NCBI GenBank assembly: GCA_965262915.1
Contig: OZ253564.1
Location: 2,816,001-2,880,000 of the forward strand
DNA length: 64,000 nt
Direction of reading: 5' to 3'
DNA from: Candidatus Spongiisociaceae bacterium
GTDB lineage: Bacteria; Actinomycetota; Acidimicrobiia; Spongiisociales; Spongiisociaceae
Shown here: one piece after another, positions 22,504 through 55,483 of the stretch
How the letters are laid out: every line of letters begins with the position of its first letter
How positions within the stretch are numbered: position 1 is the first letter of the stretch
The notes under the pieces: model-generated
Database searches by the model: none
Told to the model about the DNA's origin: nothing
What the model saw: only the letters and a program-made list of their open reading frames with translations
Position numbers and translations under genes: made by a program

Positions 22504-22601
22504 CGTGGTACTAGAAGTGGGACGTGACCATTCGATCGTTGCCTGACGCACCCTGTTAGCTGGCTGTTCGCCGATTGCGGCAGCGGACACCCCCTCCGCT
22601 G
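22504..22601 (+). repeat. att-like site A: GTGGGAC arm plus core CAGCGGA-CACCCCC-TCCGCTG
   Basis: About 95 bp homologous to 32053-32147 and, inverted, to 55386-55483. Confidence 0.8.
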
Positions 22602-22640
22602 CCCCTGAGGGGCGTGCGGGTTCGAATCTCACCCTGGGTA
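22581..22640 (+). tRNA. tRNA-Leu 3' fragment (attR-like) with a replaced anticodon loop; not a functional tRNA
   Basis: GCGGA-N7-TCCGC stem, variable arm CCCC-TGA-GGGG, T-arm GTGCGGGTTCGAATCTCAC and acceptor 3' strand CCTGGGTA; no D-arm or 5' half. Confidence 0.75.
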
Positions 22641-22952
22641 CTCGGTCTCGTAACGTCTTGAACCTGGCCGAAGCGGACCTCGCTCGTCAGTTGCGTCGGT
22701 TGCCGAGCAGGTGTAGACACGAAGTGAACGGCTGCAAAGGTCGCCGCCAACTCATCGAGGCCTTGGTCCAATTCCTTGACCCGCCATCCGAAGCCGACGG
22801 GTGTCCATGACGCACTGATCCTGTTCGGTGGCCGTGAACTCTGCTCCATTGTTCGAGGCGTTGTGAAAGCCGTGGATTCGGAGGCGTCTAGCGGAGCATG
22901 TGCAGCGCCGGGTGGTGTTGGGCCGGGGGAGGAGACCGAATAGCCTGGCGGG

Positions 22953-24191
22953 ATGACGGCCTCCTTGACTTGGCTTGACTACTCGGAGAGGGACCGCCGT
23001 CGAGCGCTGGACGTCATCGACCTGTTTCGGGAGACCAGTACAGTCGACGAACTAGGGATCGCATCCGTCCGCGACAGCTTTTCGGATCTCTTCTTCCCTG
23101 GGACTAGCACGATCCAGACTCGGGCGTGTTACTTCTTGCTCGTACCGTGGACGTTCTTGCGGCTCGAGCGGTTGCGGGTTCCGTCGAGCAAGGCGGTGCA
23201 GAGGGCTCGGTGGGAGGAACTGAATCTCAACGAACGGTTGCGCGAAGGGACTGATACGCGGGGGGTTTTCGGTAGCCGAGCCGGCGACGCTCTGAAGCGT
23301 CTACCCAGCGAGGTCTATTGGGGCGGGCTCGGAAGCTGGGGTATCCGTACCTTCTCGGGTCACAAATGGGCGTACTTCCGATCGCTTGACGGTTTCTACC
23401 GGCGCGGCGACCGGTTCCGCAGTACACCGCGAGACCCAGAGGGTCGGAGCGCGCCTCCCGCGAACTGGCATCCTCACCTCCCTGACCCCCCATCCGGGTT
23501 TCTTCGAGGCAGAATCACGGTGGCGCTTCGGCGTGGAGATGCCGAATATCTACGAGACCGAATACAGGCCCGACATCCCGACAGCCTGCTGGCCGTACTA
23601 GCAGGACGTGTGGCCGTTGAGGATTTGGAGGCAGATCGGCCCTGGGAACTCGCCCATCTCGCCGAGATCTCACCCGTTCTGCGGGACCAGCTTCACGACG
23701 CGAAGCTCTTCGCTATCTGCATGCAGGGGGCGGCGCTTCTCTACAACCTGATGCTCTCGGAACTGAGGCAGCATGACGAGTGGACGGATGCGTATCGGCG
23801 CAGGCTGGAGGACTGGGCCACCGACGTTGATGCGCTCGGGCAGGCAGTGGAGGATTGGAAACCGGACAGGGTGTGGCGGGTCGTGACGGCTGAGGGCCGG
23901 TCGCTGGGCTACCCGACCCGGGGCTTCGTCGAAGATTGGGTCGAGGAGTTGAAGCTGGGTGGCCCCAGGGGCGTCGTAGCCGACAAGTCCAACGCGCGAA
24001 CTCTCGTGAGGGGTCGCGAGTTTCAACTCAAGGGTTCCCGGGCGCGGTTGACAAACACGCGGCGGCTTGAACTGTGGGGCGGGGAATCGGGGACGGGGCG
24101 GATGGCCTACCGGTGGGGTGGAACTCGGCGGATCCTCAAGGACATTTTCGACGGGCTGGCGCGGAGCGAGGACGATGCTGGGAACGCGTGA
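22953..24191 (+). CDS. DUF6361-like protein, gene 1 of a putative Azaca-like defence operon
   Basis: N-terminus LTWLDYS..VDELG..VRDSFSDLFFPGTSTIQTRACYFL is characteristic of this family (from recall). Confidence 0.75.
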   Translation: MTASLTWLDYSERDRRRALDVIDLFRETSTVDELGIASVRDSFSDLFFPGTSTIQTRACYFLLVPWTFLRLERLRVPSSKAVQRARWEELNLNERLREGTDTRGVFGSRAGDALKRLPSEVYWGGLGSWGIRTFSGHKWAYFRSLDGFYRRGDRFRSTPRDPEGRSAPPANWHPHLPDPPSGFLRGRITVALRRGDAEYLRDRIQARHPDSLLAVLAGRVAVEDLEADRPWELAHLAEISPVLRDQLHDAKLFAICMQGAALLYNLMLSELRQHDEWTDAYRRRLEDWATDVDALGQAVEDWKPDRVWRVVTAEGRSLGYPTRGFVEDWVEELKLGGPRGVVADKSNARTLVRGREFQLKGSRARLTNTRRLELWGGESGTGRMAYRWGGTRRILKDIFDGLARSEDDAGNA

Positions 24192-26094
24192 GCGGACGCT
24201 TCTGTTGGAAAACCTGCGCCCGCCCGCTGGCTACCGTCTGCGACGTGCTGTGGGGACCAGCTTCACGCTGGACCTGATGGCGCTCCTGACGGCGCCGCTC
24301 GCCTTCACCTTCTTCGACGCCCACGACGAGGATGGTGCGCCCGTGGCCGACCCGGTGGCGCTGCTCGAGGCGCTCCGGCGGCATGCTGAGAGGGTGACTC
24401 TCTTCTGCCAGGCCGGCGCGATCGATGTACCGCGACCGGACCAGAAGCTTCTGGCCTACCTCGAAGGATCGGTGATCGAGGTTCAGGCTAAGCGGGAAAG
24501 AGGGATCTTCCACCCGAAGGTCTGGGTGCTCAACTTCGAATCCGAGAAGGGCCCCGCCATCTACCGGGTATTGTGCCTCTCCCGCAACCTGACGTTCGCG
24601 CGGGCATGGGACACCTGCCTCCGATTGGAAGGGCGACTCGCGCAACGGGAACTCGGCTACTCAAGGAACAAACCCTTCGCGGATCTGCTCCTGGCTCTCC
24701 CAGGGCTCGCTACCCGCCGACCTATCAGGGATGAGCTCCAAGAGGACCTCGAGCGGATGGCGTACGAGGTCAGGAGGGTGGACTTCGAACCGCCCCGCCC
24801 GTTCAAGAACTTCAATATCCACAACTTCGGCCTACGCGGCAGGCGTGGATGGCCCTTCCCGAAGGGTGGACGGAGCCTGGTAATCTCACCGTTTCTCGTA
24901 GGTTCGACTGTGCGACACCTTGTGCGTGAACACGGGCTCGAAGTTCTCATCTCTCGACCGGAAGCCTTCGAGGATGCCGCCCGCGAAGCAGGACGCGCGG
25001 CCCTGCCCCAGACGTGCTACGTCCTCTCACCCGGAGCCGGTCTAGACACGCGTGATACAGAGGAGGAGGAGGGGGAGGAACCTCCCGACGAAACCTCGCC
25101 CGGCGAAGGTAAGGTCGAACTCTCGGGCCTCCACGCCAAGCTGTTCCTGTTCGAGAACGGTCGTGACGCGCGGCTGTTCACGGGCTCTGCGAACGCCACG
25201 GATGCCGCACTTCACGTCAACGTCGAGGTGCTGGTCGAACTGGTCGGAAAGACGAAGGACTGCGGCATCGACGCGCTCCTCGGACTTGAGGAAGATCCCA
25301 AGCTTGAAACCCTCCGATCACTCCTGCAGGAATACCACCCTCCCAAATGCCCGGGACCGGGGCCATCCGATAGGAAGCTGGAGGCAAAGGTCGACCGGCT
25401 GGCGCGGACCCTGGCGGCCGTACCGCTCACCGCGCACGTGCAGCACGATGACGCGGACCAGCGGTGGGACATGACCGTGTTGGGAGAACTCCCGGATATC
25501 CCCGTCGCCGCGGAGGTCAAGGTATGGCCGGCAACGCTCCCGTCGGACGCAGCTTCGCTGATCGATGGCCGGAAGGAAACATGGCATGGGACGGTCGGTC
25601 CGGCCGAGCCTGCTTACCCGATCGCGACGTTCAGAGACATATCCTTCGAAGCCCTCACCGCCTTCTTGGCGTTCGAGGTGTCGCTGCGGGAGGGAGGGCA
25701 CAAGGCGCGAAAGCGGTTCGCGGTCACGGCAGAGTTGATCGGTGCGCCCGAGAACCGCAAAGAGCAACTTCTGCGCTCGCTTCTGGAGGATCCTAGGCGT
25801 GTGCTCCAACTCTTGTTCCTGATCCTGATGGGTGAGGGCGCCGACGCGTCGGCATTCGAGCGAGCAGCGCACTCTGGCGGCCCCGCTCCGCAAGGCTCCA
25901 TCGGAGGTTGGGACCAGGCAGCCCTGTTAGAGACCCTCCTTCGGTGTCTGAGCCGCAATCCCCGGCGCATCGACGAGGTTGCCAGGCTTATCTCCGACCT
26001 TGAGAGAACACCGGAAGGGAGGAGGCTCCTGCCCGAGGGTCTGAAGGAGATATGGGAACCGGTGTGGGAGGTACGGGAGACGCTGAGGTCATGA
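24175..26094 (+). CDS. Phospholipase D-superfamily protein, gene 2 of the operon
   Basis: Two HxK motifs: FHPKVW...SRNLT and LHAKLF...GSANAT; overlaps both neighbours. Confidence 0.8.
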   Translation: MLGTRERTLLLENLRPPAGYRLRRAVGTSFTLDLMALLTAPLAFTFFDAHDEDGAPVADPVALLEALRRHAERVTLFCQAGAIDVPRPDQKLLAYLEGSVIEVQAKRERGIFHPKVWVLNFESEKGPAIYRVLCLSRNLTFARAWDTCLRLEGRLAQRELGYSRNKPFADLLLALPGLATRRPIRDELQEDLERMAYEVRRVDFEPPRPFKNFNIHNFGLRGRRGWPFPKGGRSLVISPFLVGSTVRHLVREHGLEVLISRPEAFEDAAREAGRAALPQTCYVLSPGAGLDTRDTEEEEGEEPPDETSPGEGKVELSGLHAKLFLFENGRDARLFTGSANATDAALHVNVEVLVELVGKTKDCGIDALLGLEEDPKLETLRSLLQEYHPPKCPGPGPSDRKLEAKVDRLARTLAAVPLTAHVQHDDADQRWDMTVLGELPDIPVAAEVKVWPATLPSDAASLIDGRKETWHGTVGPAEPAYPIATFRDISFEALTAFLAFEVSLREGGHKARKRFAVTAELIGAPENRKEQLLRSLLEDPRRVLQLLFLILMGEGADASAFERAAHSGGPAPQGSIGGWDQAALLETLLRCLSRNPRRIDEVARLISDLERTPEGRRLLPEGLKEIWEPVWEVRETLRS

Positions 26095-29000
26095 GTCAAC
26101 GACGAGCGGGCGAGCGACCCGACACACGTGCCGTGCTGGAAGGCCTCAAAGGTTTCCAGCGTGACACCGTCGAGTACGCCTTCGAGCGCCTCTACCTGGC
26201 GCCGAACTCGACCCACCGTTTCCTGGTAGCCGACGAGGCCGGTCTCGGTAAGACGCTCGTAGCGCGAGGGGTGATCGCCAAGGCGGTCGAACACCTATGG
26301 GAAGGTCCGAATAGGGTCGAGCGGATCGACATCGTCTACATCTGCTCCAACGCCCAGATCGCCCGACAGAACGTCCGCCGACTTCAGATAGGCAGCGGCA
26401 GCTTCGTGCAGGTCGACCGGTTGACGCTGCTGCCCCAAAAAATCCGCGACCTGAAGGCGAGGAGGGTCAACTACCTCGCCCTCACACCCGGAACGTCCTT
26501 CGATCTCAAGAGCAGTATGGGGAGGCGGGAGGAGCGAGTGCTTCTCTATCACCTCCTGCAACGCATGTGGCCCGATCAACGCAAGGGCCCCATGAACCTT
26601 CTCCAAGGAAATGTGACCAAGACGGGCGACTTCCGTAGGGAACTAGAAAGGTTCGACCCCGCGAGTATCGACGACGACCTCGCGAAAGTCTTTGAACGTC
26701 GGCTGGGTCGGGAGGGCGACTCTCTCCGAGAACAGTACGAGGATCTCTGCAAGCGATTCTGGCGGAGCCGACTGCATATCCCGCCGGATGTTCGCCAGAG
26801 GCAGAGAGGGTTCATCGGCCGGCTGCGCTGGATCCTGGCCGAGGAATGCGTCAACGCGCTTGAACCCGACCTTGTGATCCTCGACGAATTCCAGCGCTTC
26901 AAGAACCTCCTCGACGGAACGGATGAAGCGGCGTGGTTGGCGGAACGACTCTTCACCCATTCAGGCGAGACATCGGACGTGCGCCTTCTGTTGCTCTCGG
27001 CGACGCCCTACCGGATGTACACGCTACACCACGAGAGCGCCGAGGACGACCACCACCAGGATTTCCTGCGAACAGTCAAGTTCCTCGAATCCAAGAAGGC
27101 GAGCGGCGACCTCCGTCGGCTCCTGGACGACTATCGGCAGGCGATGTACCGGATCGAGTCCGGAACGGATCCGCTCCTACGGGTCAAGGGAGAGATCGAG
27201 TCGCAACTCCGGCGGGTCATGTCGCGGACCGAGCGGTCCCGCGCCTCCGAGGACTCTCAAGGGATGATGAGCGAAGTACCGAGCGTAGGACTGCGACTCA
27301 CCGCGGGAGATGTACACGACTTTCTGACGCTTCAGGAGATCGGCCGCGAAGCGGGGCAGCCCCAGGTCCTCGAATACTGGAAGTCGGCACCGTACCTCCT
27401 GAGCTTCATGGACGACTACAAGCTCAAGACCGAGGTCGTCGCGATGCTGGACATGCCATCGGAGAACGGGCTCGCGAAGCTCCTGGCCGACAGCGGACGG
27501 GTGTCTCTCTCTTGGGAAGAGGTAGAGGCCTACTCACGTCTTGACCCAGCCAACGCCCGCCTGCGAAGCCTTCTCGAGTGGATGGAGGGCGCCGAGGCGT
27601 GGAAACTCCTCTGGCTGCCCCCTTCCCTTCCTTACTACGCCGAGTCGGGCCCCTGGAAGACGGCGCGCCAGCAGCAACTCTCCAAGCGTTTGATCTTCTC
27701 CACCTGGCAGGTCGTTCCCAAAGCCGTAGCGAGCATGGTGAGCTACGAAGTTGAGCGCCGCGTATTCCCACGTTTCGACGACTCGATCCGCAACGCACCC
27801 GCAGAGCGCCGAAGACGGCGACCGCTGCTGCGATTCGCGTACTCGAACGACCGTCTCACGGGGATGCCGGTGCTAGGGATGATGTACCCGAGCCCCAGCC
27901 TGGCCGAGCTGGGCGACCCAGTCCCGGTGGCACAGGGCGAGGCTACCTTGGAGGACGCCGTTGCCGGTGCGAAAGCGCAACTCGAACCGCTCCTCGCCAG
28001 AGTCACGGAGCCGTATCTCAACGCCACGCGGCAAGACGAGAACTGGTACTGGGCGGCCCCGATCCTTCTCGATCTCCAAAGGCACGGCGAGTCGACCAGG
28101 GAGTGGTTCGCTCGCTCGGACCTTCCAAGCCGGTGGAACGGTGCCAAGAAGGACGACGACGAGGGCTCCAAATGGGAGCAACATGTCTGGAAAGCGAAGA
28201 ACCTCGTCGACGCAGCTGCTCACGGATCGCTGGACCTCGGACGACCACCCGAGGACCTGGCGGAAGTTCTTGCCACCCGCTCCATAGCCGGCCCTGCGAC
28301 AAGTGCTCTCAGGGCCCTCACACGTGCCTCGGGCCCGGACCCGCCGACAGCCCCCGCCGCCCGGGACGCCGCGGCCCGGATCGCCTGGAGCTTCCGGACG
28401 CTATTCAACCTTCCCGAGGCAACCGCCCTCATCCGAGGCGAGCGCCCGCGGGACGACACACCATACTGGCGACAAGTCGTGGACTACTGTGCGGCAGGGA
28501 ACCTCCAAGCTGTACTGGACGAGTACGTCCACACCCTGCGGGATCTCGAGGGGCTCTTTGCAGCCGAGGAAAAAGAGACGTGGGACACGCTTGCCAAAGC
28601 GGTGTCAAGTGCCCTCTCGCTTCGAACAGGTGCTCCACGCGTGGACGAAATCCGGACCGACAACGAAACCATCCGGATCGAGCACCACCGAATGCGCAAT
28701 CACTTCGCCATGCGCTTCGGCGCCCAGGAGAGCGACGACGGCAAAGCGGGCGCGCGCGAAGGGCAGGTGCGTCACGCCTTCAACTCCCCCTTCTGGCCCT
28801 TCGTCCTCGCGTCCACCTCGGTCGGCCAAGAAGGGCTGGACTTCCACGCCTACTGCCACTCCGTCATCCACTGGAACCTACCGTCGAACCCCGTCGATCT
28901 CGAACAGCGCGAAGGTCGTGTTAACCGCTACAAAGGCCACGCCGTACGCAAGAACGTCGCAAAGAAGCACGGGGCCGACATCCTCGGTGGCGTCTCGAAA

Positions 29001-29315
29001 GACGTGTGGTCTGCTCTGTTCGACGCTGCTCTCGCAGAGTCGTCGAACGGGCGCGGACTCGTCCCCTACTGGCTCTTTCCGCTTCCGGACGGCGCGCGCA
29101 TCGAGCGACATGTCCCGGCGCTCCCCCTTAGCCAGGACGCATCTCAACTCGAGGCACTCACAAGCTCCCTGGCTGTATACCGGATGGTCTTCGGCCAGTT
29201 CAGACAGGACGACCTAATCACGTTCCTGCTTGAGCAGTGCCGCCCCGAACTCCCAAGCGAGATCGCACCCTCATTACACATCGATTTATCTCCCCCACCA
29301 GCGGAACCCATGTAA
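26091..29315 (+). CDS. SF2 helicase, gene 3 of the operon
   Basis: ADEAGLGKT, LDEFQ, LSATP, SVGQEGLDF and LEQREGRVNR motifs. Confidence 0.9.
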   Translation: MSQRRAGERPDTRAVLEGLKGFQRDTVEYAFERLYLAPNSTHRFLVADEAGLGKTLVARGVIAKAVEHLWEGPNRVERIDIVYICSNAQIARQNVRRLQIGSGSFVQVDRLTLLPQKIRDLKARRVNYLALTPGTSFDLKSSMGRREERVLLYHLLQRMWPDQRKGPMNLLQGNVTKTGDFRRELERFDPASIDDDLAKVFERRLGREGDSLREQYEDLCKRFWRSRLHIPPDVRQRQRGFIGRLRWILAEECVNALEPDLVILDEFQRFKNLLDGTDEAAWLAERLFTHSGETSDVRLLLLSATPYRMYTLHHESAEDDHHQDFLRTVKFLESKKASGDLRRLLDDYRQAMYRIESGTDPLLRVKGEIESQLRRVMSRTERSRASEDSQGMMSEVPSVGLRLTAGDVHDFLTLQEIGREAGQPQVLEYWKSAPYLLSFMDDYKLKTEVVAMLDMPSENGLAKLLADSGRVSLSWEEVEAYSRLDPANARLRSLLEWMEGAEAWKLLWLPPSLPYYAESGPWKTARQQQLSKRLIFSTWQVVPKAVASMVSYEVERRVFPRFDDSIRNAPAERRRRRPLLRFAYSNDRLTGMPVLGMMYPSPSLAELGDPVPVAQGEATLEDAVAGAKAQLEPLLARVTEPYLNATRQDENWYWAAPILLDLQRHGESTREWFARSDLPSRWNGAKKDDDEGSKWEQHVWKAKNLVDAAAHGSLDLGRPPEDLAEVLATRSIAGPATSALRALTRASGPDPPTAPAARDAAARIAWSFRTLFNLPEATALIRGERPRDDTPYWRQVVDYCAAGNLQAVLDEYVHTLRDLEGLFAAEEKETWDTLAKAVSSALSLRTGAPRVDEIRTDNETIRIEHHRMRNHFAMRFGAQESDDGKAGAREGQVRHAFNSPFWPFVLASTSVGQEGLDFHAYCHSVIHWNLPSNPVDLEQREGRVNRYKGHAVRKNVAKKHGADILGGVSKDVWSALFDAALAESSNGRGLVPYWLFPLPDGARIERHVPALPLSQDASQLEALTSSLAVYRMVFGQFRQDDLITFLLEQCRPELPSEIAPSLHIDLSPPPAEPM

Positions 29316-30127
29316 CCTCTTCTCTGCCTCTTGTTGTCTCGGGGTGCCGGGCGGCCTGAACCGGGGTGGTCCTCCCGTTCAGGTTTCTGGTTGGAAACGG
29401 GACCCCCGGCGGGCAGCTGGCCGAGGAGTGCGAGGACGTCACCGAAACAGAAGCCTCAACTTATGAGGGTGTTTACGTGTTTCGCTGGGGGTGGCAGCCA
29501 TCCTTGTGGGGCTGTGAGGATGGCACAGCGCCCCGAGGAAGCAGCCGCAGCATGGTTAGACGAACACCTACCCGCCGGGACAGCCGTCGGGCAGGCCCCA
29601 CCAACAGATCCGCCAACAACTCGGCGACACCGAACTATCCAGAGCCGTGTTCGACCTGGTTGTGGCCAGAGCCGAAAACACCCAAAGCCAGGAACGGGAC
29701 GGCCCCGGCCCCGGCCCCGGCATCGAGCTCTAAACGAGGGACACAATGAGAGACATAGCAGCCAGACCACCACGAACCGCCAAGCCAGCGGCCCAGAGCT
29801 ACGGACTAACACTCCGTAGCCAGCCTCAGATCGGCCGGATGGCTGCGGCATCGAGTACGGCTTCGACCTCCGCCAGGTTCAGACGGAAAAACACGTCGAG
29901 GAACCTGGAGTAGATCCAGCATCTGTACATAAAGCGTCGGTTTGGGCGTCGGTTAGGGGCCGGAGTTGGACTGGGGGTGGTGTGGTTGTGTTGGTGACGT
30001 CGTATCGACGGTGGAGGTTGATGTGTTGGTAAACGGTGGTCGATAGTTGCACTGAGGTAGGTGGTGTTCCAGGTGGCGATGGCGGTGGTAGGCAGGGCGA
30101 GGCATTGGGCTTTGGAGGTCTTGGTCG

Positions 30128-30256
30128 TCGGTGGCTGAACCGGTCGACGTACTCGAGGGCCGCGTACTCGAGGCGGCCGAGGTCCCGCCATGGTCCTTTC
30201 TCTCGGATGGGTACGGTCTTGCACAGACCGATGACCGACGCTGTCGCGGCTGACAC
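30128..30256 (-). pseudogene. IS3-family transposase C-terminal remnant
   Basis: ASVIGLCKT..IREKGPWRDL..LEYAALEYVDRFSHRR matches the IS3 integrase-core C-terminus. Confidence 0.7.
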
Positions 30257-30278
30257 GGCTCTTGAGGGGTTGTCTGGC

Positions 30279-30446
30279 CATGTGCTGGGTCACACGTTGG
30301 TCACGAACCTGGTTCGCTCGGGAGCCGATGTCGTGCTGATCTCAGAACTCGCCGGGCATCGCCGCTTGGACACGACCCGACGCTACAGTCTCCCGTCGGA
30401 GACCGACCGAGCCGATGCTGTCGAGTCGATACTGGTCGACCAGTAA
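30279..30446 (+). pseudogene. Tyrosine recombinase C-terminal fragment
   Basis: HVLGHT...LAGHRRLDTTRRY (box II, with the catalytic R degenerate). Confidence 0.8.
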
Positions 30447-30479: not shown

Positions 30480-30776
30480 CTACTGGTTGCGACGGCAGTA
30501 ACGGACGAAGGATTGGATGGCTGTTAGGCAGGCGTTCCAGGTAGCTGGCGCAGCGTCACCCCAGCGGCCGGTCAGTACCGCCCGAATATGAGACCCCATT
30601 AGGTGGCTGATCATCATGTTCTGGCCGAGGTCCGCAACCAGAGCGTCGAGGGCTTGGCGGTACGTGCGGCGGGTGTTGGGGGACAGGTCTTTGTCGGAAA
30701 AGAACCCCTCCACAGCATCAGCAAGAGTGGGGATCCGATCCGGTAGCGGGACGACTTCGGCAGCTCTCAGGGCCAT
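30480..30776 (-). pseudogene. Tyrosine recombinase N-terminal (SAM-like) fragment
   Basis: LSPNTRRTYRQAL...APATWNACLTAIQSFVRYC, then a stop; no catalytic domain. Confidence 0.7.
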
Positions 30777-31309: not shown

Positions 31310-32052
31310 GGGCGGCCCGTTCCGTCTCGGCTGTTCCGCCGAGTATCCGGTAGACGAGTGACCGGCGTCGTGGGTCGGTGTGTTGCCCGGTGTTGTGGCG
31401 GCGCCGGGAGTACTCGGCGGCGTCTTCCCACCGTTGACGGGCGGCGGGGGTTCGGGCCGTTTCGATGTTGCGGGCGATGACGCGATCGGGTAGGAGGGGT
31501 GGTAGTGGCGTGGTCATGGGTGGGTTCTTTCGTGTCGATTGTGGCCGGGTGTGCATCGAGATTCGGTGCCTCCCGGGTGACCGCCGCACCGCGCATGTGT
31601 TCTTTGTGCGCGGTCGTCTCGGGTCTGGAAGTGGTTGGTTAGTGGAAATGTCATGGTGTGTCGCGGATGGCACCAACATATAACCCCAATACACAGTTGT
31701 GGGGCGGGTGGTGGTGTTGGTTAGTAGAGGGCGGGGAGGTGGTAGGCGATGCACCACCAGGGGGCGGTCGCGGACCGTCCGGGATGGGTGTGTACTACCC
31801 CGTCCCGTTCCATGTTGCGGAGGGTAACACCGAATCGATCGGAGTCCGGCCTGTACCCCAATGTCCCGTGTTCCCGCCGATGTTGCGGATGGCGTCGGCT
31901 ATCCGTTCGGCGGGGGGCCGGTCCGGTTCCTAGCCACCGACTAATGGCAGGGGCGGCCTTTACCTACCGGGGTGCGGTCGAGGGCGAAGGACGGGACGTC
32001 GCCGAGGTGCCCGCCCCTGCCGGCTGAGGCCCGGCGGTCTCTGGATGAACCA

Positions 32053-32147
32053 GGTACTAGAAGTGGGACTTACCTACTCAGCTGCCGCCTGACACACCTT
32101 GTCAGCTGGCCGTTCGCCGCTGTGGGCAGCGGAGGACCCTTCCGCTG
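32053..32147 (+). repeat. att-like site B: GTGGGAC arm plus core CAGCGGA-GGACCCT-TCCGCTG
   Basis: Homologous to sites A and E. Confidence 0.8.
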
Positions 32148-32234
32148 GAGGCGCTCAGGCGCTGTGGCTGTGGGTGTTGGGCCAGCCCAGGTCGGAGGGC
32201 GTCGTCACATGGATACTCGGCGGCGGTGGCACCG

Positions 32235-33332: not shown

Positions 33333-33602
33333 CGCTCTGCTCCTGCTACGTAGGATGCGGGCACATCGAAGTCCATTCCGGGCTGTCTGACCGCTCCGGA
33401 CCGGGTGGCACAGCAGGCGGATGTTTCACGGCGCCGACCATTACCTCGTAGCCGCACCGCGGGCACGGGACTCTCAGAAAGACGTGATCGAAGGGGTACA
33501 CCGTCTGGTCACCTCCGAACAACGGTCCTCGACACACAACCGGGACCGGCCGGCCGTGTCAGGCGGCCAACTCGAGCACTAAAGCCCCGTATGGGTTCGG
33601 GG

Positions 33603-43700: not shown

Positions 43701-45359
<1,659 letters not shown>

Positions 45360-45382
45360 CTAATCCTGTCCTACAGCAACCG

Positions 45383-45673
45383 TCAACCGACGATCGCCAA
45401 CAGGTCGCGGGACGAGAGGATCAGATACTCATCGCCTTCATGTTTCAATTCGGTGCCTCCGAACTTGGAGTAGACGACCACATCACCCTCGGATACATCG
45501 AGGGGGATCCGCTCTCCGTCATCACTCAGATCACCAGGCCCCACAGCCATAATCGTTCCGGTCTGTGGTTTTTCCTTGGCCGTGTCGGGGATTACCAGTC
45601 CCGACGACGTGCGCTGCTCGTCATCCTCGTTGGGCCTGACGATCACACGGCCGCCGAGTGGCTTCAGATTCAT
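45383..45673 (-). CDS. groS: Co-chaperonin GroES
   Basis: [24 protein letters not shown] and SKFGGTE motifs. Confidence 0.99.
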
Positions 45674-46246: not shown

Positions 46247-46927
46247 TCACATGTGTTCGATATAGCTTGCTGCGACGTGTTCGGGTGGGTTGGTGTAGCG
46301 GGCGATGTAGCGCTGTGATCGGTGACCGAGGCGTCGTTGGGGTTCGGTGTGTTCAGCGTCGTGGAGCCGGCCGATCCGTTCGAGGATGGTGTTGATGCTA
46401 CGTCCGGAGAGGCGCCCGTCCGGGCGGCGGCTGCTCACCGATGCGGCGGATAGGAAAAATGCGGTGGACTTGGGGGTGGTGTCGGCCGGTCGTTCCTCCT
46501 CCAGGTAGTCGGCGAGGGCGTGGCGGGCGTCGACGGAGAGGAAGACTGTGCGCTGAGTTTTTCCTTTGCCCCGAACACCCACGACCCGGGCGCGGCGGGC
46601 GGCACGCAGTTGCGCTGGTCGGGACGGTTGAACCTGGTCGAGGTCAAGCAGCACAAGTTCGAGGCGTCGGAGTCCGGTGGACAACAGCACGAACACGATT
46701 GCACGATCTTGGACGGGTCGGCTGTGGCCATGCAGCCGAGGCGGATCCCCTCTCCCCCGCCGCCGGCCCTTACGTTGGCTGTATCTTTCCAGCCGATCGC
46801 ATAGGTTCTTGAGTGATCTCACCTGTCCCGGGGCGAGGCTGCGCGGTTCCAACGGTGGTAGCGGCAACGCAGAGACACCGGTGGAGGGGTTTCCGGTCGC
46901 GAACAGCCCGGGCTCTTGTGCGCTCAC
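46247..46927 (-). pseudogene. Tyrosine recombinase, internally deleted
   Basis: LSTGLRRLEL, GKGKTQRTV and LGHRSQRYIARY present; the HxxR box and the N-terminal domain are missing. Confidence 0.8.
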
Positions 46928-49091: not shown

Positions 49092-50336
49092 TCAGGGGGT
49101 GGTGGGTTGGTTTTGGGTGGTGAGGGCTGTGTCGAGGCTGGCGATTAGGTGGGTGATGTCGGGTGCTTCGAAGACTCGGTATCTTTGTTTGCCGACGCTG
49201 CGTACTGTGAGGATGCCTACTTGGGTGAGCCGGTTGATGGCCTGGCCTGTTGTGACGGTGGATCGTCCGATGGTGGCGGCGGCTGTTGTGACGGTGAAGA
49301 CCGGTCGGGCGGGTAACAGGCCCACGAGCAGGTCAGCGGCTGATCCACGCCGGATGGGTGCGGCCCGGGCGCGGAGGTCTGCTTCTAGTGCGGAGACAGC
49401 ATCGAGGTAGCGTTGCGCTTCGTGGCAGGCGTCGTAGGTGGCCTCGAGGAACACTCCTAGCCATTGTTCGGCAGCCTGGTCTCGGCCCGGGTCGGTGGGG
49501 GCACCTTCGTGCCGGTAGGCGGTGAGTCCGTCAAAGTAGACGTTGGGAGACCGGGCGAGGGCGGCGCTGATGGGCGGCACGAACGCGGGAGCGAGATTCC
49601 GCTGGTGTAGCACGGCGTGGATTAGTGCCCGCCCGACGCGTCCGTTGCCGTCGGCGAACGGGTGGATGGTCTCGAATTGGGCATGGGCGATACCGGCTTG
49701 GATCAGCGGTGGGATATCGGATCGGTTCATGTAGGCGACTAGGTCCGCCAACAGGTCGGGGACTTGTTCGGCGGGGGGTGGCACATAGGAAGCGCCCACT
49801 GGTGTGTATGCGTTTGCACCGATCCAGTTCTGCGTGTCGCGTACCCAGCCGCCTAGGTGTGGATGAGCAGAGGTGGCCATCAGCCGGGTGTGGACCTCCA
49901 GTAGGTCTGTGGTTCGGAGCGGTCCACCGCTGGTAGCGACGCGGATAGCGGTTTCCATCGCTTCGAGGTTCCCCAGCACCTCTGTCGCCGCCCGATCCGA
50001 CGACCTGCCCCCTTCCCGTTGTTCGGCCTCGGCGGTGAGGATCCTCCGAGCCGATGGGTTGATCGCTTCGATACGCGAAGACGCCATGGCCTCGACGCGC
50101 AGCAGCACATGAGCGAACGTGTCCAAAGGATGGGGGCTGCCGGCGGCGTGTCGGGTGTTCAGCGCCCGAACCGCGGCGGAGGCGTCACCAGCTGTGGCTA
50201 CCACATCGAGGGACAGACGCGGTGTCCACCCACCAAGGGGGTCTGGCACATACGCCTGGTAACGGCCGCCCCGCCGCTCTCTCGCTGCTGGCGCGTCCAG
50301 ACGTGGCTGCCAGTACCCCGAGACGTATCGGCCCAT
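49092..50336 (-). CDS. Fic-family protein
   Basis: HPFADGNGRVGR motif, inhibitory SSRIEA motif and a C-terminal wHTH-like region. Confidence 0.93.
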   Translation of the reverse strand: MGRYVSGYWQPRLDAPAARERRGGRYQAYVPDPLGGWTPRLSLDVVATAGDASAAVRALNTRHAAGSPHPLDTFAHVLLRVEAMASSRIEAINPSARRILTAEAEQREGGRSSDRAATEVLGNLEAMETAIRVATSGGPLRTTDLLEVHTRLMATSAHPHLGGWVRDTQNWIGANAYTPVGASYVPPPAEQVPDLLADLVAYMNRSDIPPLIQAGIAHAQFETIHPFADGNGRVGRALIHAVLHQRNLAPAFVPPISAALARSPNVYFDGLTAYRHEGAPTDPGRDQAAEQWLGVFLEATYDACHEAQRYLDAVSALEADLRARAAPIRRGSAADLLVGLLPARPVFTVTTAAATIGRSTVTTGQAINRLTQVGILTVRSVGKQRYRVFEAPDITHLIASLDTALTTQNQPTTP

Positions 50337-50340
50337 AACC

Positions 50341-51699
50341 CTAACCCCCAACCAACCTAACCAAACTGACGAACACTAACCCTAGCTTAGAACCTTTTGG
50401 GGGGTGGGTAAGGCAGAAGCGGCCAGGGTGGGTGGATGTGGATGTGTTGGCGGGTCGGGGGGTGGGGTGGTTGCCGTGGGCGGCGTCGGACAGCTCGCAT
50501 CGTTTGTACCCGAACGGGACCTGCCCGAAGTGTCCGGGTATTGCAGGTATGGGGGCGTTATCTGCCGTCGTAACCCGTCGGAGGTCTGGGAGGGCCGTGT
50601 TGAGGACGGCCGCTGCATCGAAGATACCGGTCTCATGGCGGGCGAAGCGCTCGTAGGCGTCCTTGTCGAGGATCCGGAGCACGACTAGAGCAACAGCGGA
50701 GCCTACCCATAGGTCATTGTCAGGCAGCGACGACAGCACCACGGCCGCTAGATGGGTCGCTTGCTCCAGGTCACGCAGACTGCATTCGGGGTGTTCCACT
50801 ACCAGGTGCATCATCTGGCGGATCCATCCGTTGGTCGGTCCGAAACGGGCGGCGAGTCCAGTAGCGTCCAGTAGCCCATCGAGGAACGTTGTGATGTCCG
50901 GTTGGGCTGGTACCGGAAGGCCAACATGCAGATCAGCGAAGCGTCGCAGATACCTGTCGGCGCCAAACTCCTCACCGTAGAGCGACCCCACAGCACAGCG
51001 CAGCTGGTCTCGGTTGATCGCCAAGACAACCACAACTCCGTCAACTGAGAACAGGTGCCTGACCACCTCCAAAAGATCGAGGGCATACGCCGGTCGGCAT
51101 CTATCCAACTCATCCACGAACACGACTAGGGGACGGTCCTCGGCTGTGGCGGCCCCCAGCGCCTTGGTGAAGGCGTCGATGGCCGTCTTAGCAGCGTCCC
51201 ACGAACCCAGCATCGAGGGGCCGCTACCCAGCATCTCCCGGTCGATGATCCCTTTCGTGAGTACCTTGGCGAGATGCCACGCTACAGCGTCGGCATTTCG
51301 CCTCAAGGTGTCCCTGACGGGACCAGAGACACGAGCCGATATCGCGGCCACCAGATCGACCAGGGGCCTCTGGGTGTACTGCTGCCGCCACGCGTTGAAC
51401 TCGACCACCCGCACGTCTCGGGATTGAAGAAACGCCGAACACATCCTCACGAACGCGGTCTTGCCCGAACCCCACGGGGCGTCGAGTAACACAACAGCAG
51501 GACCTTCAATACCCGAAAGCACAGAACAGAAAGCCTCGACGTGGTGGCGCCGGCTCAGTTTGTCGTGCTTGAAGGGGTCCTTCGGGTCAGCCTCGAACTC
51601 GTTGGGGTGTAACCGCACGAACACCCAGGATACAAAGCGGCGGAAGCTGCGAAGGGTCCCGTCGAGGCGGAAGACGAGGACCGACCCGGCTGTGGCCAT
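50341..51699 (-). CDS. KAP-family P-loop NTPase; C-terminus probably truncated near 50550
   Basis: APWGSGKT, FNAW and VFVDELDRCRP motifs; the tail reads through a repeat and low-complexity DNA. Confidence 0.85.
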   Translation of the reverse strand: MATAGSVLVFRLDGTLRSFRRFVSWVFVRLHPNEFEADPKDPFKHDKLSRRHHVEAFCSVLSGIEGPAVVLLDAPWGSGKTAFVRMCSAFLQSRDVRVVEFNAWRQQYTQRPLVDLVAAISARVSGPVRDTLRRNADAVAWHLAKVLTKGIIDREMLGSGPSMLGSWDAAKTAIDAFTKALGAATAEDRPLVVFVDELDRCRPAYALDLLEVVRHLFSVDGVVVVLAINRDQLRCAVGSLYGEEFGADRYLRRFADLHVGLPVPAQPDITTFLDGLLDATGLAARFGPTNGWIRQMMHLVVEHPECSLRDLEQATHLAAVVLSSLPDNDLWVGSAVALVVLRILDKDAYERFARHETGIFDAAAVLNTALPDLRRVTTADNAPIPAIPGHFGQVPFGYKRCELSDAAHGNHPTPRPANTSTSTHPGRFCLTHPPKGSKLGLVFVSLVRLVGG

Positions 51700-51989
51700 T
51701 GACGCCGACGGACAGCTACACGCCGAATCCGGGGGTGTCCTGGTTATGGGCTCGGCGGCCGTTACCGGTGCTATCCATGCAAACTGACGCCCCGATCACA
51801 TCGTCGAGAACTAGTGGTTGGTTCCACGGTTTCCCAGGCACCTCATGAGCTTGCAGCGGAAGGGGGTGTAGGTGGTGGGGGTTTAGGAGGGGGAGCCGTG
51901 TTGGGGCTGGTGAGGGTGTGTGGGGTCGGTCGGGTTCTCTTGTTGGTGGGGTACGGAGGCCCGACGGGTCACCAGCCGCACCAGGATCC

Positions 51990-52119
51990 CCACAAAACAG
52001 AGACGGTCCGGGATGCGTGGTTATGGCATCGGAGTGGATGGTTGTCCTCACGGGACGGTATCAAAGCCTCGACCGCTGTCCAGACCACGTTTGCTACTTC
52101 GGGTTCGAGCGCGCGCATA
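51990..52119 (-). pseudogene. IS5-like transposase N-terminal remnant
   Basis: MRALEPEVANVVWTAVEALIP...HPLRCH, followed by a frameshift. Confidence 0.55.
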
Positions 52120-52274
52120 ATGGTGTCTCCACCAGTTGGGGTGAGTTTTTTGCACTCGGTATCAAACCCGAGGAACCTCCTCAACTGGTGGATTTCCCCA
52201 CCCGGGCACACACCCCACAGCCTCCCTACCCGCGCGCTGGCTGTCCTGAAACGCCCAGCCTGCCTAACTGCCCC

Positions 52275-52469
52275 CTGAGCCCCTCCCACGGAAGGGTCCT
52301 CCGTTGCCCACAGCGGGGAAGGGCCAGGCCAGACCCGGCCTCAGCCTCTGATGATTTTCGAGCCGCCAGTTTCGGGCGGAAACACCCCCGAACCCGACCC
52401 CCGAACCGTTAACCAACGCGACCCAAAAGCCCGGAAGCCGATTTGGGGGTTGGGAGAACCCGGCCACGA
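52275..52469 (-). repeat. att-like site D: second arm type plus core CAACGGA-GGACCCT-TCCGTGG (52286-52306)
   Basis: Inverted homologue of site C. Confidence 0.8.
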
Positions 52470-52595
52470 CCCATACAGCTTGGCCGTTCTAAGTTTGCAG
52501 CCCTCGGTCCGATTGTCTGGGTTCCCCTCGGGTAAGCGCCCATACCCGGTACGCTTAGGTTATCTATCCCACTGTGGGATTGTTGAGGAGGTATC

Positions 52596-52841
52596 ATGGC
52601 GAGTTACCGTTGGACTAGACGGGTAACTGTTATTGGCGGCGGTTTCCTAGCACTGCTAGTCCTGTTTGTCGCCGTTACCCGGATCCTGAACGTAGAAGTC
52701 GCCGGTGTGCAACCCGAGGCCTGGGCACTGACCGCCACCATGACTGCGCCGCTCACCCTTGGGACTCTGCTGGTAGCCATCTCGGTGACGGCAGTAGCCG
52801 AGAGATCACGACGCCACCGAACACCAAAACCGGTGCGATAG
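52596..52841 (+). CDS. Small two-TM membrane protein
   Basis: GAGGAGG RBS; two hydrophobic segments and a basic C-terminal tail. Confidence 0.7.
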   Translation: MASYRWTRRVTVIGGGFLALLVLFVAVTRILNVEVAGVQPEAWALTATMTAPLTLGTLLVAISVTAVAERSRRHRTPKPVR

Positions 52842-53328
52842 CAAACGCGTACCGTGAAACCCCCTATGACCAGTGCCCGCCCCCAACAAGGCCGCCCACC
52901 ACCCACATATCCCCCCGGCCGCCACTGCGCCACCGACAGCTGCACGGCGCGCCTATCCATCTACAACCCGACCGACCACTGCGGCCTCCACTCCCCCCTC
53001 AAACGGGACCGCCAACGCTGGTGAGACCATCGGGCGGGTAACCGCTGTCGGCGGCCGGTCGAGCCCCCCGAGTCCCTTTCGGAGGCCGAGAGTACGCCAG
53101 CAGATGGGCGGGGCCGTTACGTGGGGAGAAACAGCCCGAGGTTCCCAGGCCCACAACGCTGCTCTACCCGCGGGCTCACCGGATGCGGGACACCGACGAC
53201 GACCACTCCCGATCCGCCGCCGGCATGTCTTTACCCACCAGCACCCGCAGCGACACGACCAAAAGCCGACATTGGGTGACCACCATTAGGCCGCCCGTCG
53301 TCGAGACCACACCACCGACACAAGCCCC

Positions 53329-53349
53329 CAGCGGAAGGGTGGTCCGTTA
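53329..53349 (-). repeat. att-like core H: TAACGGA-CCACCCT-TCCGCTG
   Basis: Matches the core consensus; intergenic. Confidence 0.7.
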
Positions 53350-53476
53350 CCTGGTCGAGCAGGGCAAGAGGGTGGGGATTGGCGGATGTAGCCTCATCGG
53401 TGCCGCTGGTGACGCAAATGCCGCTGTTCTAGCGGGGCCAGGCTCCAGACACTCGCCGTTGGGGGAGTGATAGCAG

Positions 53477-54529
53477 TTAGCGGCGGCCCTTCTTCTTGTT
53501 CTGGTGCTGCTGCTTGCGGCGTTGCTCCCGGTTCAAAGCCGGCTGCGGACCTAGCGGTTGTTGAGGACCGGGCTGTGGCGGTTGCATGACGACCTGCGTA
53601 ATCTCCAAGTACGCCCGGCCGTGGTGGTTCTCGATGAGCTTGGTCGTCCCCGTGTCGTTGAAGGTGTGCCGAGCGGCGTGATGAACCGACAAGACGAGGT
53701 CTTGTAACGTCTGGTCGTCCTCCATGCGGGTCACCTTCAGCCCCTGTTGCTGAGCGTCTCCGATTGTCACGGGTCTCCCATGTGACTTGAACCGAGAGAA
53801 GTCAGCGAACCACTTCGCAACTGCTTCTGCCTTGGTATGGTCGCCTTCGAGCATGTGCGCTCCGAGTTGCTCGGCGACAAACGACACGGCGTGCTCCTGC
53901 GAATGGTGGCACTGCGCTATGAGGCCAGGGAGAAGCGAACGCAGCAGCGGGAGCCAGGCACCGATATTCCTGGGATCCTGACACTCGGTTTTTGCCTTCT
54001 CGAACTGATCGATGATGGCCTGGCCCGGTGACGACCGGGGACCTTCAGGCGTCATCAGGGTGAACTGCGGATCAATGGGGCCAAGCTGTGAGTGTGCCCC
54101 CATGAGGATCTCGTCGCACGCCAACGCCATCATGGTCGCTGCCGACATTGCCGCAACTGGCACCACTGCTCGGATGTGATCGAACCTCGTCCGCAGGTAC
54201 CCCATGATGGCCTCGGCAGCTTCGGGACTACCGCCGGGGCTCGTGAGGATCAGGTCAAGCTCCCGCTCCGCGATGTTGGACATAGCTTCCATGAACCCTT
54301 GCTGGTCGCCCAGGGTGAGGGAGAGGGCTTCATCGTTCGGAACGGGTTTGTTTTCCAGCCAGCACGTAGCGTAGAGAACCGTGGCGCGGCCCGTGTAGTC
54401 CGATAGCTTCTTCAGGTACTTGCGACGAAGCTGGTCATGGGGCGACGGGGCTCCAGGTCTCGGTGGTCTGGCGGCCGCAGCCTTCTTCAGGTCATAGAGT
54501 TCGCGGAGCTGCTCACCCCATGTCGACAT
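53477..54529 (-). CDS. SDH-family ClpP/crotonase-fold serine protease
   Basis: LDLILTSPGG, AMSAATMMAL, LGPIDPQ and SHGRP motifs. Confidence 0.88.
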   Translation of the reverse strand: MSTWGEQLRELYDLKKAAAARPPRPGAPSPHDQLRRKYLKKLSDYTGRATVLYATCWLENKPVPNDEALSLTLGDQQGFMEAMSNIAERELDLILTSPGGSPEAAEAIMGYLRTRFDHIRAVVPVAAMSAATMMALACDEILMGAHSQLGPIDPQFTLMTPEGPRSSPGQAIIDQFEKAKTECQDPRNIGAWLPLLRSLLPGLIAQCHHSQEHAVSFVAEQLGAHMLEGDHTKAEAVAKWFADFSRFKSHGRPVTIGDAQQQGLKVTRMEDDQTLQDLVLSVHHAARHTFNDTGTTKLIENHHGRAYLEITQVVMQPPQPGPQQPLGPQPALNREQRRKQQHQNKKKGRR

Positions 54530-54701
54530 TCGGTACCCACCCCGACGAGTTCGAGGCAACGAACTGCTGAACAACAGGTGTGGTAGCGGTCACGGCAGCG
54601 AAGTACTGAACCTCCGCGACCGCGTACGCAGCAACGAGATCGGCCACTCCGGCTTCGTGTTCCTGCAACTGCGATTCGAGTTCAGTACCGATGTCGCTCA
54701 T
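54513..54701 (-). CDS. 62-aa acidic protein overlapping the protease start
   Basis: AGGAGG RBS before ATG 54701; 17-bp overlap with the protease gene. Confidence 0.65.
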   Translation of the reverse strand: MSDIGTELESQLQEHEAGVADLVAAYAVAEVQYFAAVTATTPVVQQFVASNSSGWVPNVDMG

Positions 54702-54765
54702 GGTCCTCCTCATTGGTCCACTACAATACCCTATCCCCTACTGAGCTTCGGCGAGGGAACGGCCG

Positions 54766-54786
54766 CAGCGGAGGGCTAGTCCGTTG
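54766..54786 (-). repeat. att-like core G: CAACGGA-CTAGCCC-TCCGCTG
   Basis: Matches the core consensus; the adjacent TGGCCCTCGCCGGGT resembles the proximal arm of sites A, B, C and E. Confidence 0.7.
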
Positions 54787-54850
54787 CTGGCGACCCGGCG
54801 AGGGCCATCGACCGGCGGTAGCCTCTCGATGGCGGACCTGGGAGGGCAGC

Positions 54851-55399
54851 ATGAAGCGGATCGTCACGATTGGTGTAGTCACAGGGGCGCTCATCTTGGG
54901 TGCGGTTGCAGGATGGGCTGTTGCAGGTTTCACTGACGTACCGGAGGACTCCCCTCACGCTCCTGCTATCGAGTGGGCTGTTGACCTGGGAATCATCGGC
55001 GGCAAGACAGCCACCACTTTCGACCCGTCAGGACGGCTGACCCGTGCTCAGATGGTCACGATCCTGCACCGCTACCACAACGCCTTCCCGGAGAAGGTCA
55101 AGGTTATCGACTACACGGAACCCGACCTGGTGTTAAGCGGCAACGGTGGCGACGTCACCTTGCAGGTCGGTACAGACATCCAGCCCGGTGTGTACTCAGT
55201 GGAGTACACCTCTGCCTCTCCGACCACCATCCGTCAGTGCACTATGTATCGGTATTCCGGGTTCCAGTACACAGGCGATCAGGTAATTTGGAGCCGGGAG
55301 TTCCGCCCTTCCGGTCGGACGGTCTTGGAGATCCTGGCTTCCGATGCAGCGGTTCGTTTCCGAGCCTGCGGGGAGCTGCCTTCGGAAACGGAAGGGTAG
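54851..55399 (+). CDS. Secreted SLH-domain protein
   Basis: Signal peptide MKRIV..; FTDVP..H..AIEWAV..GII.G...FDP...LTRAQM; C-terminal VGTDIQPGVY domain. Confidence 0.85.
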   Translation: MKRIVTIGVVTGALILGAVAGWAVAGFTDVPEDSPHAPAIEWAVDLGIIGGKTATTFDPSGRLTRAQMVTILHRYHNAFPEKVKVIDYTEPDLVLSGNGGDVTLQVGTDIQPGVYSVEYTSASPTTIRQCTMYRYSGFQYTGDQVIWSREFRPSGRTVLEILASDAAVRFRACGELPSETEG

Positions 55400-55483
55400 A
55401 CCGCTGCCAACAGCGGCGAACAGCCAGGTAACAGGGTGTGTCCGGCAGCGGTGGCATGGTCACGTCCCACTTTTAGTCCCACG
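55386..55483 (-). repeat. att-like site E: GTGGGAC arm plus core CAGCGGT-CTACCCT-TCCGTTT
   Basis: Minus strand CGTGGGACTAAAAGTGGGACGTGACCAT...CCCTGTTACCTGGCTGTTCGCCG, homologous to sites A and B. Confidence 0.8.

Follow-up and report, generated by a model that had tools for sequence, protein, structure and literature searches.

The window analysed here, a stretch of 64,000 nucleotides from a Candidatus Spongiisociaceae genome (G000; positions 2816001-2880000 of its single 5,055,038-bp contig, 64.4% G+C), carries seven 21-bp sites in which inverted 7-nt arms enclose a 7-nt spacer. A first-pass annotation, made from the letters of the window, had interpreted these sites, here termed cores, as an integron-like cassette system whose recombination sites mimic the anticodon stem-loop of tRNA-Leu. 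We examined the cores, their flanks and the modules between them in the window, in the remainder of G000 and in other genomes, those named below being labelled G001, G002 (a sister species), G003, G005, G006, G007 and G041.

Cores and arms in the window

All seven cores were confirmed in position, strand and sequence. A degenerate core pattern gives 11 strand-matches in the window, falling in seven places, as compared with 0.04 expected from 100 shuffles. The cores and the sequences attached to them, including arms of the La1, La2 and Lb types, are as follows.

22451-22580, plus strand: La1 arm of A, on the element side, with a GTGGTAC/GTGGGAC repeat; 86% identical to G000 4435415-4435560 and 82% to the arm of E
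22581-22601, plus strand: core A, CAGCGGA-CACCCCC-TCCGCTG
22594-22663, plus strand: remnant of a tRNA-Leu(UAA) 3' half, 91.7% identical to tRNA positions 39-86, with about 18 further nt similar to the far-end copy at G000 1499386-1499456
32044-32126, plus strand: La1 arm of B
32127-32147, plus strand: core B
33840-34059, plus strand: arm of C; its distal module (33840-33989) is common to D and others, its proximal module is La2
34060-34080, plus strand: core C
52286-52306, minus strand: core D
52307-52490, minus strand: arm of D, consisting of Lb and the distal module in common with C
53329-53349, minus strand: core H, without a conserved arm
54766-54786, minus strand: core G
55386-55406, minus strand: core E
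55407-56819, no single strand: element body behind E, with its La1 arm (55407-55486), a helix-turn-helix open reading frame (ORF; 55557-55856, plus strand) and a DUF3800 gene (56061-56705, minus strand)

Five of the seven spacers end in ACCCT, as first proposed (GGACCCT in B, C and D, CCACCCT in H and CTACCCT in E), the others being CACCCCC in A and CTAGCCC in G. Alignments also bear out the arm common to A, B and E: the arm of A is 82% identical to that of E (22504-22598 against 55483-55389) and 76% identical to that of B (22507-22601 against 32053-32147), and the repeat GTGG(T/G)AC...GTGGGAC can be seen in arms of this type. The ORF beside the arm of A is unrelated to the one beside that of E. 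A second arm of about 170 bp, said to be common to C and D, stood in part: about 100 nt are alike (33890-33989 against 52469-52369, 79% identity) at 70-170 nt from the core, but the 70 nt next to the core differ. This module of about 100 nt contains the hairpin GTTTCCGCCCGAAAC and is found at 14 or more genomic positions, including some with no core nearby (e.g. 1294746, 2366783, 324860 and 4379480).

Further repeats adjoin the right-hand cores. The left side of core H (53320-53349) reads CCAGGTAAC-GGA, similar to the conserved arm motif GGTTACCTGG in reverse complement joined to the half-core, and may represent a secondary point of exchange. A repeat of about 230 bp (51967-52199) lies in the flank of core D, many copies of which occur at 74-82% identity in sister genomes (e.g. 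at least eight in G006) and one at G000 999518-999747. This repeat has no Rfam match and may be a miniature inverted-repeat transposable element or a small RNA gene.

The cores had been described as intergenic or at gene ends. This holds with adjustments: the ORFs called over C, D and H were judged spurious from their composition or lack of family matches, and E overlaps the stop of an SLH-domain ORF (54713-55399), but G falls inside the annotated 5' end of that same ORF, whose TTG start is doubtful. The two facing arrays of the earlier description are better seen as two separate island blocks 18 kb apart. The left one, from A to C, holds a DUF6361/PLD/helicase system and a 365-aa ORF; the right one, from D to E, holds small ORFs, a ClpP-like protease and an SLH protein. 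The roughly 18 kb between them contain cell-wall genes, DprA, an insertion sequence (IS), a groES-groEL copy and Fic/KAP genes.

Folding of the single strands sets A, B and C, which form good hairpins (-8 to -10.8 kcal/mol), apart from D, H, G and E, which do no better than shuffled sequences, and a double-strand protein-binding site with two half-sites fits the cores better than a folded element does. A hint in the opposite direction comes from the pair formed by positions 3 and 19, which across 50 cores is G:C in 21, A:C in 17, A:T in five, G:T in four and unpairable in three; counting G-T wobble, this pair can form in 47 of the 50 on the complementary strand and in 30 as written. This bias can be counted in favour of an RNA-level role, in which the hairpin and conserved loop, placed where island genes end, would terminate transcription, stabilise the transcript or belong to a small RNA; many cores do lie just after gene ends. 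We regard this explanation as very improbable. The orientation of cores to genes is inconsistent, the cores lack a T-run, and the four terminator-like sites predicted in 51500-56000 all lie elsewhere than at cores, for which reason an intrinsic terminator (a GC-rich hairpin followed by a T-run) was rejected as an identity. No Rfam family was found at the cores: nothing reached gathering scores in the whole window, and relaxed scans of 51500-55800 and 22300-22900 gave chance-level matches only. The consensus fold of 18 arm-and-core copies supports the 7-bp hairpin only, RNAalifold runs on three and on 18 copies giving no extended arm structure. An RNA-level role would also leave unexplained the tRNA halves that are found at junctions (see below).

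Distribution of the core family and recurrence of modules

The degenerate pattern occurs in 48 places in the whole of G000, two of which are the anticodon arms of tRNA-Met (1661531) and tRNA-Asn (2905447). A profile of core and flanks, the scan suggested by the first-pass annotation, was run with nhmmer and detected 60 copies in G000, 50 with a recognisable 7-7-7 core and ten with odd loops of 6-12 nt. Among these variants, the copy at 302570-302595 has a 12-nt loop in which GACCC is duplicated (GGACCCGACCCT), and others have loops of 6 or 8 nt. The consensus of 49 distinct copies is GG CAgCGGA ssACCCT TCCGCTG ggGG; spacer positions 1-2 are free and positions 3-7 conserved, giving NNACCCY. About a third of the cores, as judged by eye, have no conserved arm. 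Same-orientation neighbours no more than 10 kb apart are spaced by 278-9,546 bp (median about 1.1 kb, 25 intervals).

Outside G000 the family is scarce. A strict pattern with 31 matches in G000 has three in G001 and one in G007, and none in 38 other relatives or in 400 other genomes of the class. BLAST searches with arm and core recovered nine copies in G001 and one each in G003 and G005. Scanning metagenomes by the core pattern returned 120 loci with one match each, few of which nhmmer retained as family members; the four top-scoring loci (L080, L083, L129 and L136) are 100% identical to G001 contigs and add nothing independent. The core family is lineage-restricted and nearly private.

Within G000 the 60 copies fall in 18 island regions that total 494 kb, or 9.8% of the genome, and neither chance-level frequency nor scatter among core genes is seen. 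This distribution bears on the possibility that the cores are an island-specific relative of repetitive extragenic palindromes (REP), a hairpin spread with mobile DNA, whose mosaic surroundings arose by homologous or illegitimate recombination over 20-60 bp with no dedicated recombinase. The cores are indeed short, imperfect palindromes with many copies in non-coding DNA, and their arms are themselves mosaics of smaller repeated modules. REP-type elements would be scattered among core genes, whereas these copies are confined to 18 regions; no Y1/RAYT transposase (PF01797) was found in the genome, which is 96.4% complete, and the poor folding of D, H, G and E also speaks against a hairpin element. 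We consider this origin unlikely. The ends of IS200/IS605 elements or a TnpB guide RNA were likewise rejected, there being no Y1 transposase and the two TnpB-type matches (764698 and 2593427) lying far from cores.

The DNA between the cores of the window comprises the following modules.

22953-29315, plus strand: cargo of module A-B, encoding DUF6361, PLD-like and DEAD/Helicase_C proteins, with an 80% identical block in G001; probably a defence system
32148-34059, no single strand: module B-C, with a 365-aa ORF (32235-33332, minus strand) that has no family match
52854-53024, plus strand: 56-aa ORF rich in Cys and His, part of a repeat unit present at least 11 times in the genome
53350-54765, no single strand: module H-G, with an ORF for a ClpP-like SDH-type protease (53477-54574, minus strand)
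54787-55385, plus strand: module G-E, with the SLH-domain ORF named above

Integrase-less modules stacked between cores, as the first-pass annotation had supposed, are present, and four module types recur in unrelated contexts (nine contexts in all): module K three times, B-C twice, H-G twice (once in G001) and a short unit with the Cys/His ORF twice. Module B-C recurs between the G000 cores at 1485843 and 1488930, with identities of 98% and 93%, and its outer flanks are 63% and 61% identical, which is background. An 89.7% identical copy of module H-G lies between two cores of G001 in another context and part of it is 92% identical in G005, values to be compared with the 82-85% DNA identity of groEL within the genus. 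The smallest recurring module has only 257-261 bp. Copies of the Cys/His unit also adjoin cores in G001 and G041; its 56-aa product matches no Pfam or NCBIfam family and has two homologues among 5.8 billion proteins, and the Atlas yielded unnamed phage and actinobacterial clusters only. Of 13 comparisons between inner ends of recurring modules, 12 give 64-99% identity, and the outer flanks show 54-64%, against a background with a mean of 59% and a maximum of 68%.

Left and right flanks reassort at the core, and spacers reassort independently of both. Pairs of cores with 96-100% identical right flanks carry different left arms and often different spacers; B and its paralogue are 98% identical only from the right arm onward, and the likeness between C and its paralogue ends at the left arm. 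In the 18 regions, 14 of 254 distinct endpoints of low-copy duplications lie within 30 bp of a core, about seven times the 1.9 expected, with a maximum of eight in 2000 randomisations. The cores are preferred breakpoints, at an enrichment modest enough to be compatible with the REP-like origin as well.

These patterns might be taken as the signature of an active platform resembling an integron, in which recombination between neighbouring cores excises modules as circles and a recombinase acting in trans, of the IntX or Int333 families described below, re-inserts them at other cores, so that the arrays constitute a working store of cassettes. The recurrence of four module types between cores with unrelated outer flanks, down to a module of under 300 bp, the close similarity of H-G between genomes, the short spacing of neighbouring cores, the independent reassortment of spacers and the presence in the genome of full-length or near-full-length ORFs of both recombinase families would all be explained. 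We consider such a platform possible but doubtful. Assembled contigs of four metagenome runs contain no circles or empty junctions, although these contigs break at cores and are uninformative either way; their joints (e.g. 53068 to 52288 and 52282 to 53042) match the arrangements of paralogous copies elsewhere in the genome and speak neither for nor against circles or deletions. Most duplication endpoints lie elsewhere than at cores, and about a third of the cores, by eye, are without a conserved arm. Gene orientation is also inconsistent, with same-direction gene ends upstream at 11 of 50 cores versus 26 of 50 opposite.

tRNA halves at junctions and candidate recombinases

The arms of the core correspond to the anticodon stems of tRNA-Met and tRNA-Asn (CAGCGGA...TCCGTTG), and near-matching stems are found in tRNA-Lys(CUU) (CAACGGA...TCCGCAG) and tRNA-Leu(UAA) (GGCGGA...TCCGCTG). 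The link to a tRNA anticodon arm proposed in the first-pass annotation therefore stands, but the choice of tRNA-Leu needs correction, since tRNA-Met and tRNA-Asn fit better (7/7 and 6/7 in the two arms) than tRNA-Leu (5/7 and 7/7). The core spacer, NNACCCY, differs from the anticodon loop. The spacers had also been regarded as variable; given a conserved, element-borne ACCCY they are not free to vary at will.

Site A is a hybrid in which the La1 arm, the left core arm and the spacer CACCCCC are followed by a right core arm that runs into the 3' half of tRNA-Leu(UAA). Similarity extends about 18 nt beyond the end of the tRNA and resembles the sequence that follows the partial tRNA-Leu copy at G000 1499375-1499456. 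That partial copy and the tRNA-Leu gene 1411160-1411245, which a P4-type integrase adjoins, bound an 88-kb island, and an island at tRNA-Ile (504416-551223) is likewise bounded by the tRNA and a displaced half; 22 of the 60 core copies lie inside these two islands. Among 50 cores a significant tRNA-Leu tail is confined to site A, the scores for C, 1429773 and 518367 having p values of 0.05-0.09, and the other 49 are without any tRNA part. The window itself thus presents only the displaced-fragment side of the anatomy of a tRNA island. The G+C content is 56-59% at window positions 1-12 kb and 16-22 kb, compared with 63% to the right of site A; the low values to the left fit foreign DNA that ends at the La1 arm of A. 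The motif CGTTTCTGTTGGT, which lies downstream of three island-side tRNAs, has one exact match in G000 and is not a feature of the family.

Both sides of this anatomy are present in a relative of the element on the right of core E. The block 55387-56819 is 79-89% conserved in four sister genomes. In G002 and G007 homology to the window begins exactly at core E and continues through the arm, while the sequence on the opposite side of the core is unrelated in all three: in the window it is the end of the SLH gene, in G007 a type of flank common beside G000 cores, and in G002 a tRNA-Met 3' half, after which come 20 nt identical to those downstream of the G000 tRNA-Met gene. An intact tRNA-Met gene lies at G002 89239-89317, and the displaced 3' half with its native downstream flank at 94263-94333, enclosing an island of 4.95 kb that encodes a type I methylase, a DUF3800 protein and small ORFs. 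G000 and G001 represent the empty site, their tRNA-Met continuing straight into the same downstream flank. Directly after the intact tRNA-Met of G002 is a 5'-truncated, frameshifted integrase gene, 58% identical to residues 230-347 (E 8e-37) and 346-383 (E 1e-11) of IntX and without similarity to Int333. This exact anatomy of site-specific integration at a tRNA, with an intact gene, a displaced half and an adjoining integrase, is not accounted for by a REP-like palindrome. The far junction in G002 consists of the La1 arm and CAGCGGA CTACCGC TCCGTTG, whereas the loop of tRNA-Met is CTCATAA, so that the overlap is not identical; the junction keeps the element's own spacer, which would place the exchange at the end of the spacer or further right. 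In G005 a La1-type core is found 5.6 kb from tRNA-Leu(UAA), with no integrase in between.

Intact integrases are absent from the window, as first stated, three fragments being recognisable.

30036-30446, plus strand: C-terminal fragment of a copy of Int333, an Xer-like integrase (Pfam Phage_integrase); 92.8% identical to G000 1430890-1430669, with the protein 86% identical to residues 262-332
30480-30776, minus strand: N-terminal (SAM-like) integrase fragment
46247-46927, minus strand: truncated integrase of a third family; 82% identical to G000 1452271-1453245

The 31 Phage_integrase matches of G000 include four relevant integrase families, and full-length or near-full-length ORFs are present for IntX (302-391 aa) and Int333. 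IntX is a simple Xer-like protein, matching only Xer-type models in an NCBIfam scan, all of them below their cut-offs. All eight IntX copies of G000, among them 1434914-1436089, are 3.0-12.2 kb from a core, five of them within 10 kb, and G001 has an IntX remnant flanked by co-oriented cores. Int333 itself, at G000 1430688-1431686, lies 0.9 kb from the core at 1429773, and the fragment in the window 1.7 kb from B; in G041 the only cores found surround a broken Int333 homologue. A scan of the genome collection for Int333 gave 13 loci, of which only L013 has cores, its integrase copy carrying two stop codons; relatives of Int333 lie in metagenome-assembled genomes labelled Acidimicrobiia. With modest confidence we rank IntX ahead of Int333 as the acting recombinase. 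Two identical 21-mers in inverted orientation at G000 1460277 and 1468488 (CAGCGGAGGACCCCTCCGCTG) flank 8.2 kb that include an apparently intact IntX gene (1464624-1465730); this segment may be an invertible or composite unit.

Probable stacking of junctions and its relation to known systems

We think that the cores are probably attachment-site junctions produced by serial, site-specific stacking of small, lineage-restricted islands of the IntX type, most of which are now integrase-less. This interpretation builds on the clustered site family, the tRNA halves at two junctions, the one occupied site with its empty counterparts and the recurrence of modules between cores. Each element would carry at one end an arm (La1, La2, Lb or others) followed by a pseudo-anticodon arm, CA(G/A)CGGA-NNACCCY-TCCG(C/T)TG. 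An Xer-like tyrosine recombinase, for which IntX is the best candidate and Int333 the alternative, would recombine this site with a sequence of the same stem, which may belong to the anticodon arm of tRNA-Met or of tRNA-Leu(UAA), or to a core that a previous insertion left behind. If the exchange takes place within the spacer or at its border with the right arm, a cut position that we infer from the junctions, the far junction would retain the spacer of the element. Repeated insertion would stack elements head to tail, and loss of the integrase together with internal deletions would leave rows of integrase-less modules of 0.3-10 kb between cores, with defence genes, a protease, an SLH protein and small ORFs as cargo. 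We read the arrays of the window as two such stacks that no longer have integrases. Most of the pattern is accounted for by islands that accrete and decay passively, and of the first-pass interpretation this account retains the junctions of site-specific integration tied to tRNA anticodon arms, as at site A and in the tRNA-Met island of the sister species, but not the likeness to integrons or the exchange of single cassettes.

Several observations weigh against serial stacking. Only one comparison of an occupied with an empty site was found, and neither array of the window is anchored by an intact tRNA, there being no tRNA gene in the window. Spacer and anticodon loop differ both at the G002 island and at site A, where CACCCCC faces the tRNA-Leu(UAA) loop CTTAAAC. 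Classical tyrosine integrases need identical overlap regions, so that either the point of exchange or the mechanism would not be the textbook one. The closeness of IntX to cores is not distinctive, other island-borne integrase families being similarly near; the eight IntX genes or fragments of G000 have no recognisable core or tRNA half within 900 nt upstream, and Int333 is also linked to cores. Finally, 240 of 254 duplication endpoints are not at cores, and the inner end of module H-G next to H has background identity (60%).

The likeness to integrons lies in the arrays of modules of about 1 kb that each end in a short palindromic site, many without an integrase nearby, and in candidate recombinases that are Xer-like, as IntI is. 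The features examined beyond this do not support it. No protein of the genome exceeds the cut-off of 265 bits for IntI (TIGR02249): the best of 12 matches in the whole-genome search scores 63.1 bits, and the whole Int333 protein 75.8 bits. The attributes of attC sites (imperfect palindromes of 57-141 bp, R''/L''-L'/R' boxes and GTTRRRY) are absent from the consensus of 49 copies, as judged from consensus and fold with no attC covariance model run. Gene polarity is not consistent, crude ORF calls placing the end of a same-direction gene in the 250 nt upstream of 11 of 50 cores and the start of an opposite one there at 16 of 50; these counts also led us to drop the idea of arms as 5' leaders of co-oriented cassettes. 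Unlike an integron site, which acts as a folded single strand, the core would be a double-strand site with arms, and the lack of IntI and of any attC-like consensus or fold tells against the active platform too. The IntegronFinder survey reports complete integrons to be lacking in all Actinobacteria genomes (PMC4889954). It is possible but doubtful that the pseudo-anticodon arm, with its own NNACCCY loop, has become a portable attachment site at which a simple Xer-like recombinase (IntX or Int333) takes up modules of 0.3-10 kb that lack an integrase, many with defence genes, and stacks and rearranges them within the genomic islands of this actinobacterial, Acidimicrobiia-like lineage. Such a system would be a functional counterpart of integrons with a separate origin in tRNA-targeting integration, and would tolerate non-identical spacers.

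The cores are closer to tRNA-targeting islands. In published descriptions, lambda-type sites have a 7-bp loop flanked by a palindromic stem, matching the organisation of the cores (PMC8371274), and island ends are marked by the regenerated target and a displaced fragment (PMC4383910). G002 conforms to this with an intact tRNA and a displaced 3' fragment at the opposite end, and has an integrase remnant beside the tRNA. Unlike in such islands, the far junction here has the element's own conserved NNACCCY in place of the anticodon loop, the candidate integrase is of a simple Xer-like type, 49 of 50 junctions are without a tRNA part and modules are as small as about 0.26 kb.

Two other systems involve accretion or shuffling of modules. 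In streptococci, cis-mobilizable elements (CIMEs) accrete at the att sites of integrative and conjugative elements as integrase-less DNA flanked by direct att sites, forming tandem stacks that a related integrase can in principle mobilise in trans. The arrays here are alike in being tandem stacks of integrase-less DNA between direct att sites, and might in principle be mobilised in the same way. Compared with CIMEs, the cores have far more copies (about 60), enclose much smaller units and occur in a different phylum. In the dif modules of Acinetobacter plasmids, short recombinase sites delimit accessory units that are shuffled from one context to another (PMC13141974, PMC6449649); the likeness, discrete accessory modules with short bounding sites, is conceptual only. 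The dif modules use plasmid-borne pdif sites of the XerC/XerD type and the Xer system of the host, whereas the cores are chromosomal, have a 7-7-7 structure that resembles a tRNA stem, carry long arms and form direct arrays. The pdif sites are 28 bp long and alternate in orientation. A limited literature search found no description of a site system like the one reported here, which we do not claim to be unpublished.

The arrays are an unusual variant of a known process and not a proven new kind of integron. If serial stacking is correct, integration at tRNA genes can give rise to a family of sites that no longer needs a tRNA, and every insertion would leave a new landing pad on which small islands pile up, here mostly with defence and surface-protein genes. 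In this way a tRNA-targeting integrase could lead, by concrete steps, to a cassette-like store of genes, in a phylum for which the IntegronFinder survey records no complete integrons. The two candidate enzymes, with their defined substrates, allow the question of how a tyrosine recombinase handles unlike spacers to be asked. If the modules are immobile, the arrays would stand as a fossil record of islands accreting in series, preserved with unusual clarity and chiefly of interest to mobile-element specialists.

Further defence-type genes surround the arrays. On the left are ABC-3C CTD8 (18994-20061) and GmrSD (20365-22059), followed by the DUF6361, PLD-like and helicase genes; near the right array a Fic gene (49092-50351) lies beside a KAP NTPase gene (50341-51699), and an HTH-STAND NTPase of 1369 aa is encoded at 56806-60915. 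The IS between the arrays, of the DDE_Tnp_1 type (41742-42577), has at least ten more copies in the genome at 99-100% identity, one of which splits module K at G000 1481848-1482681. The groES-groEL pair (43701-45673) lies in an accessory stretch and has copies at G000 4009983-4012152 and 3293047-3295197 with 96-99% DNA identity.

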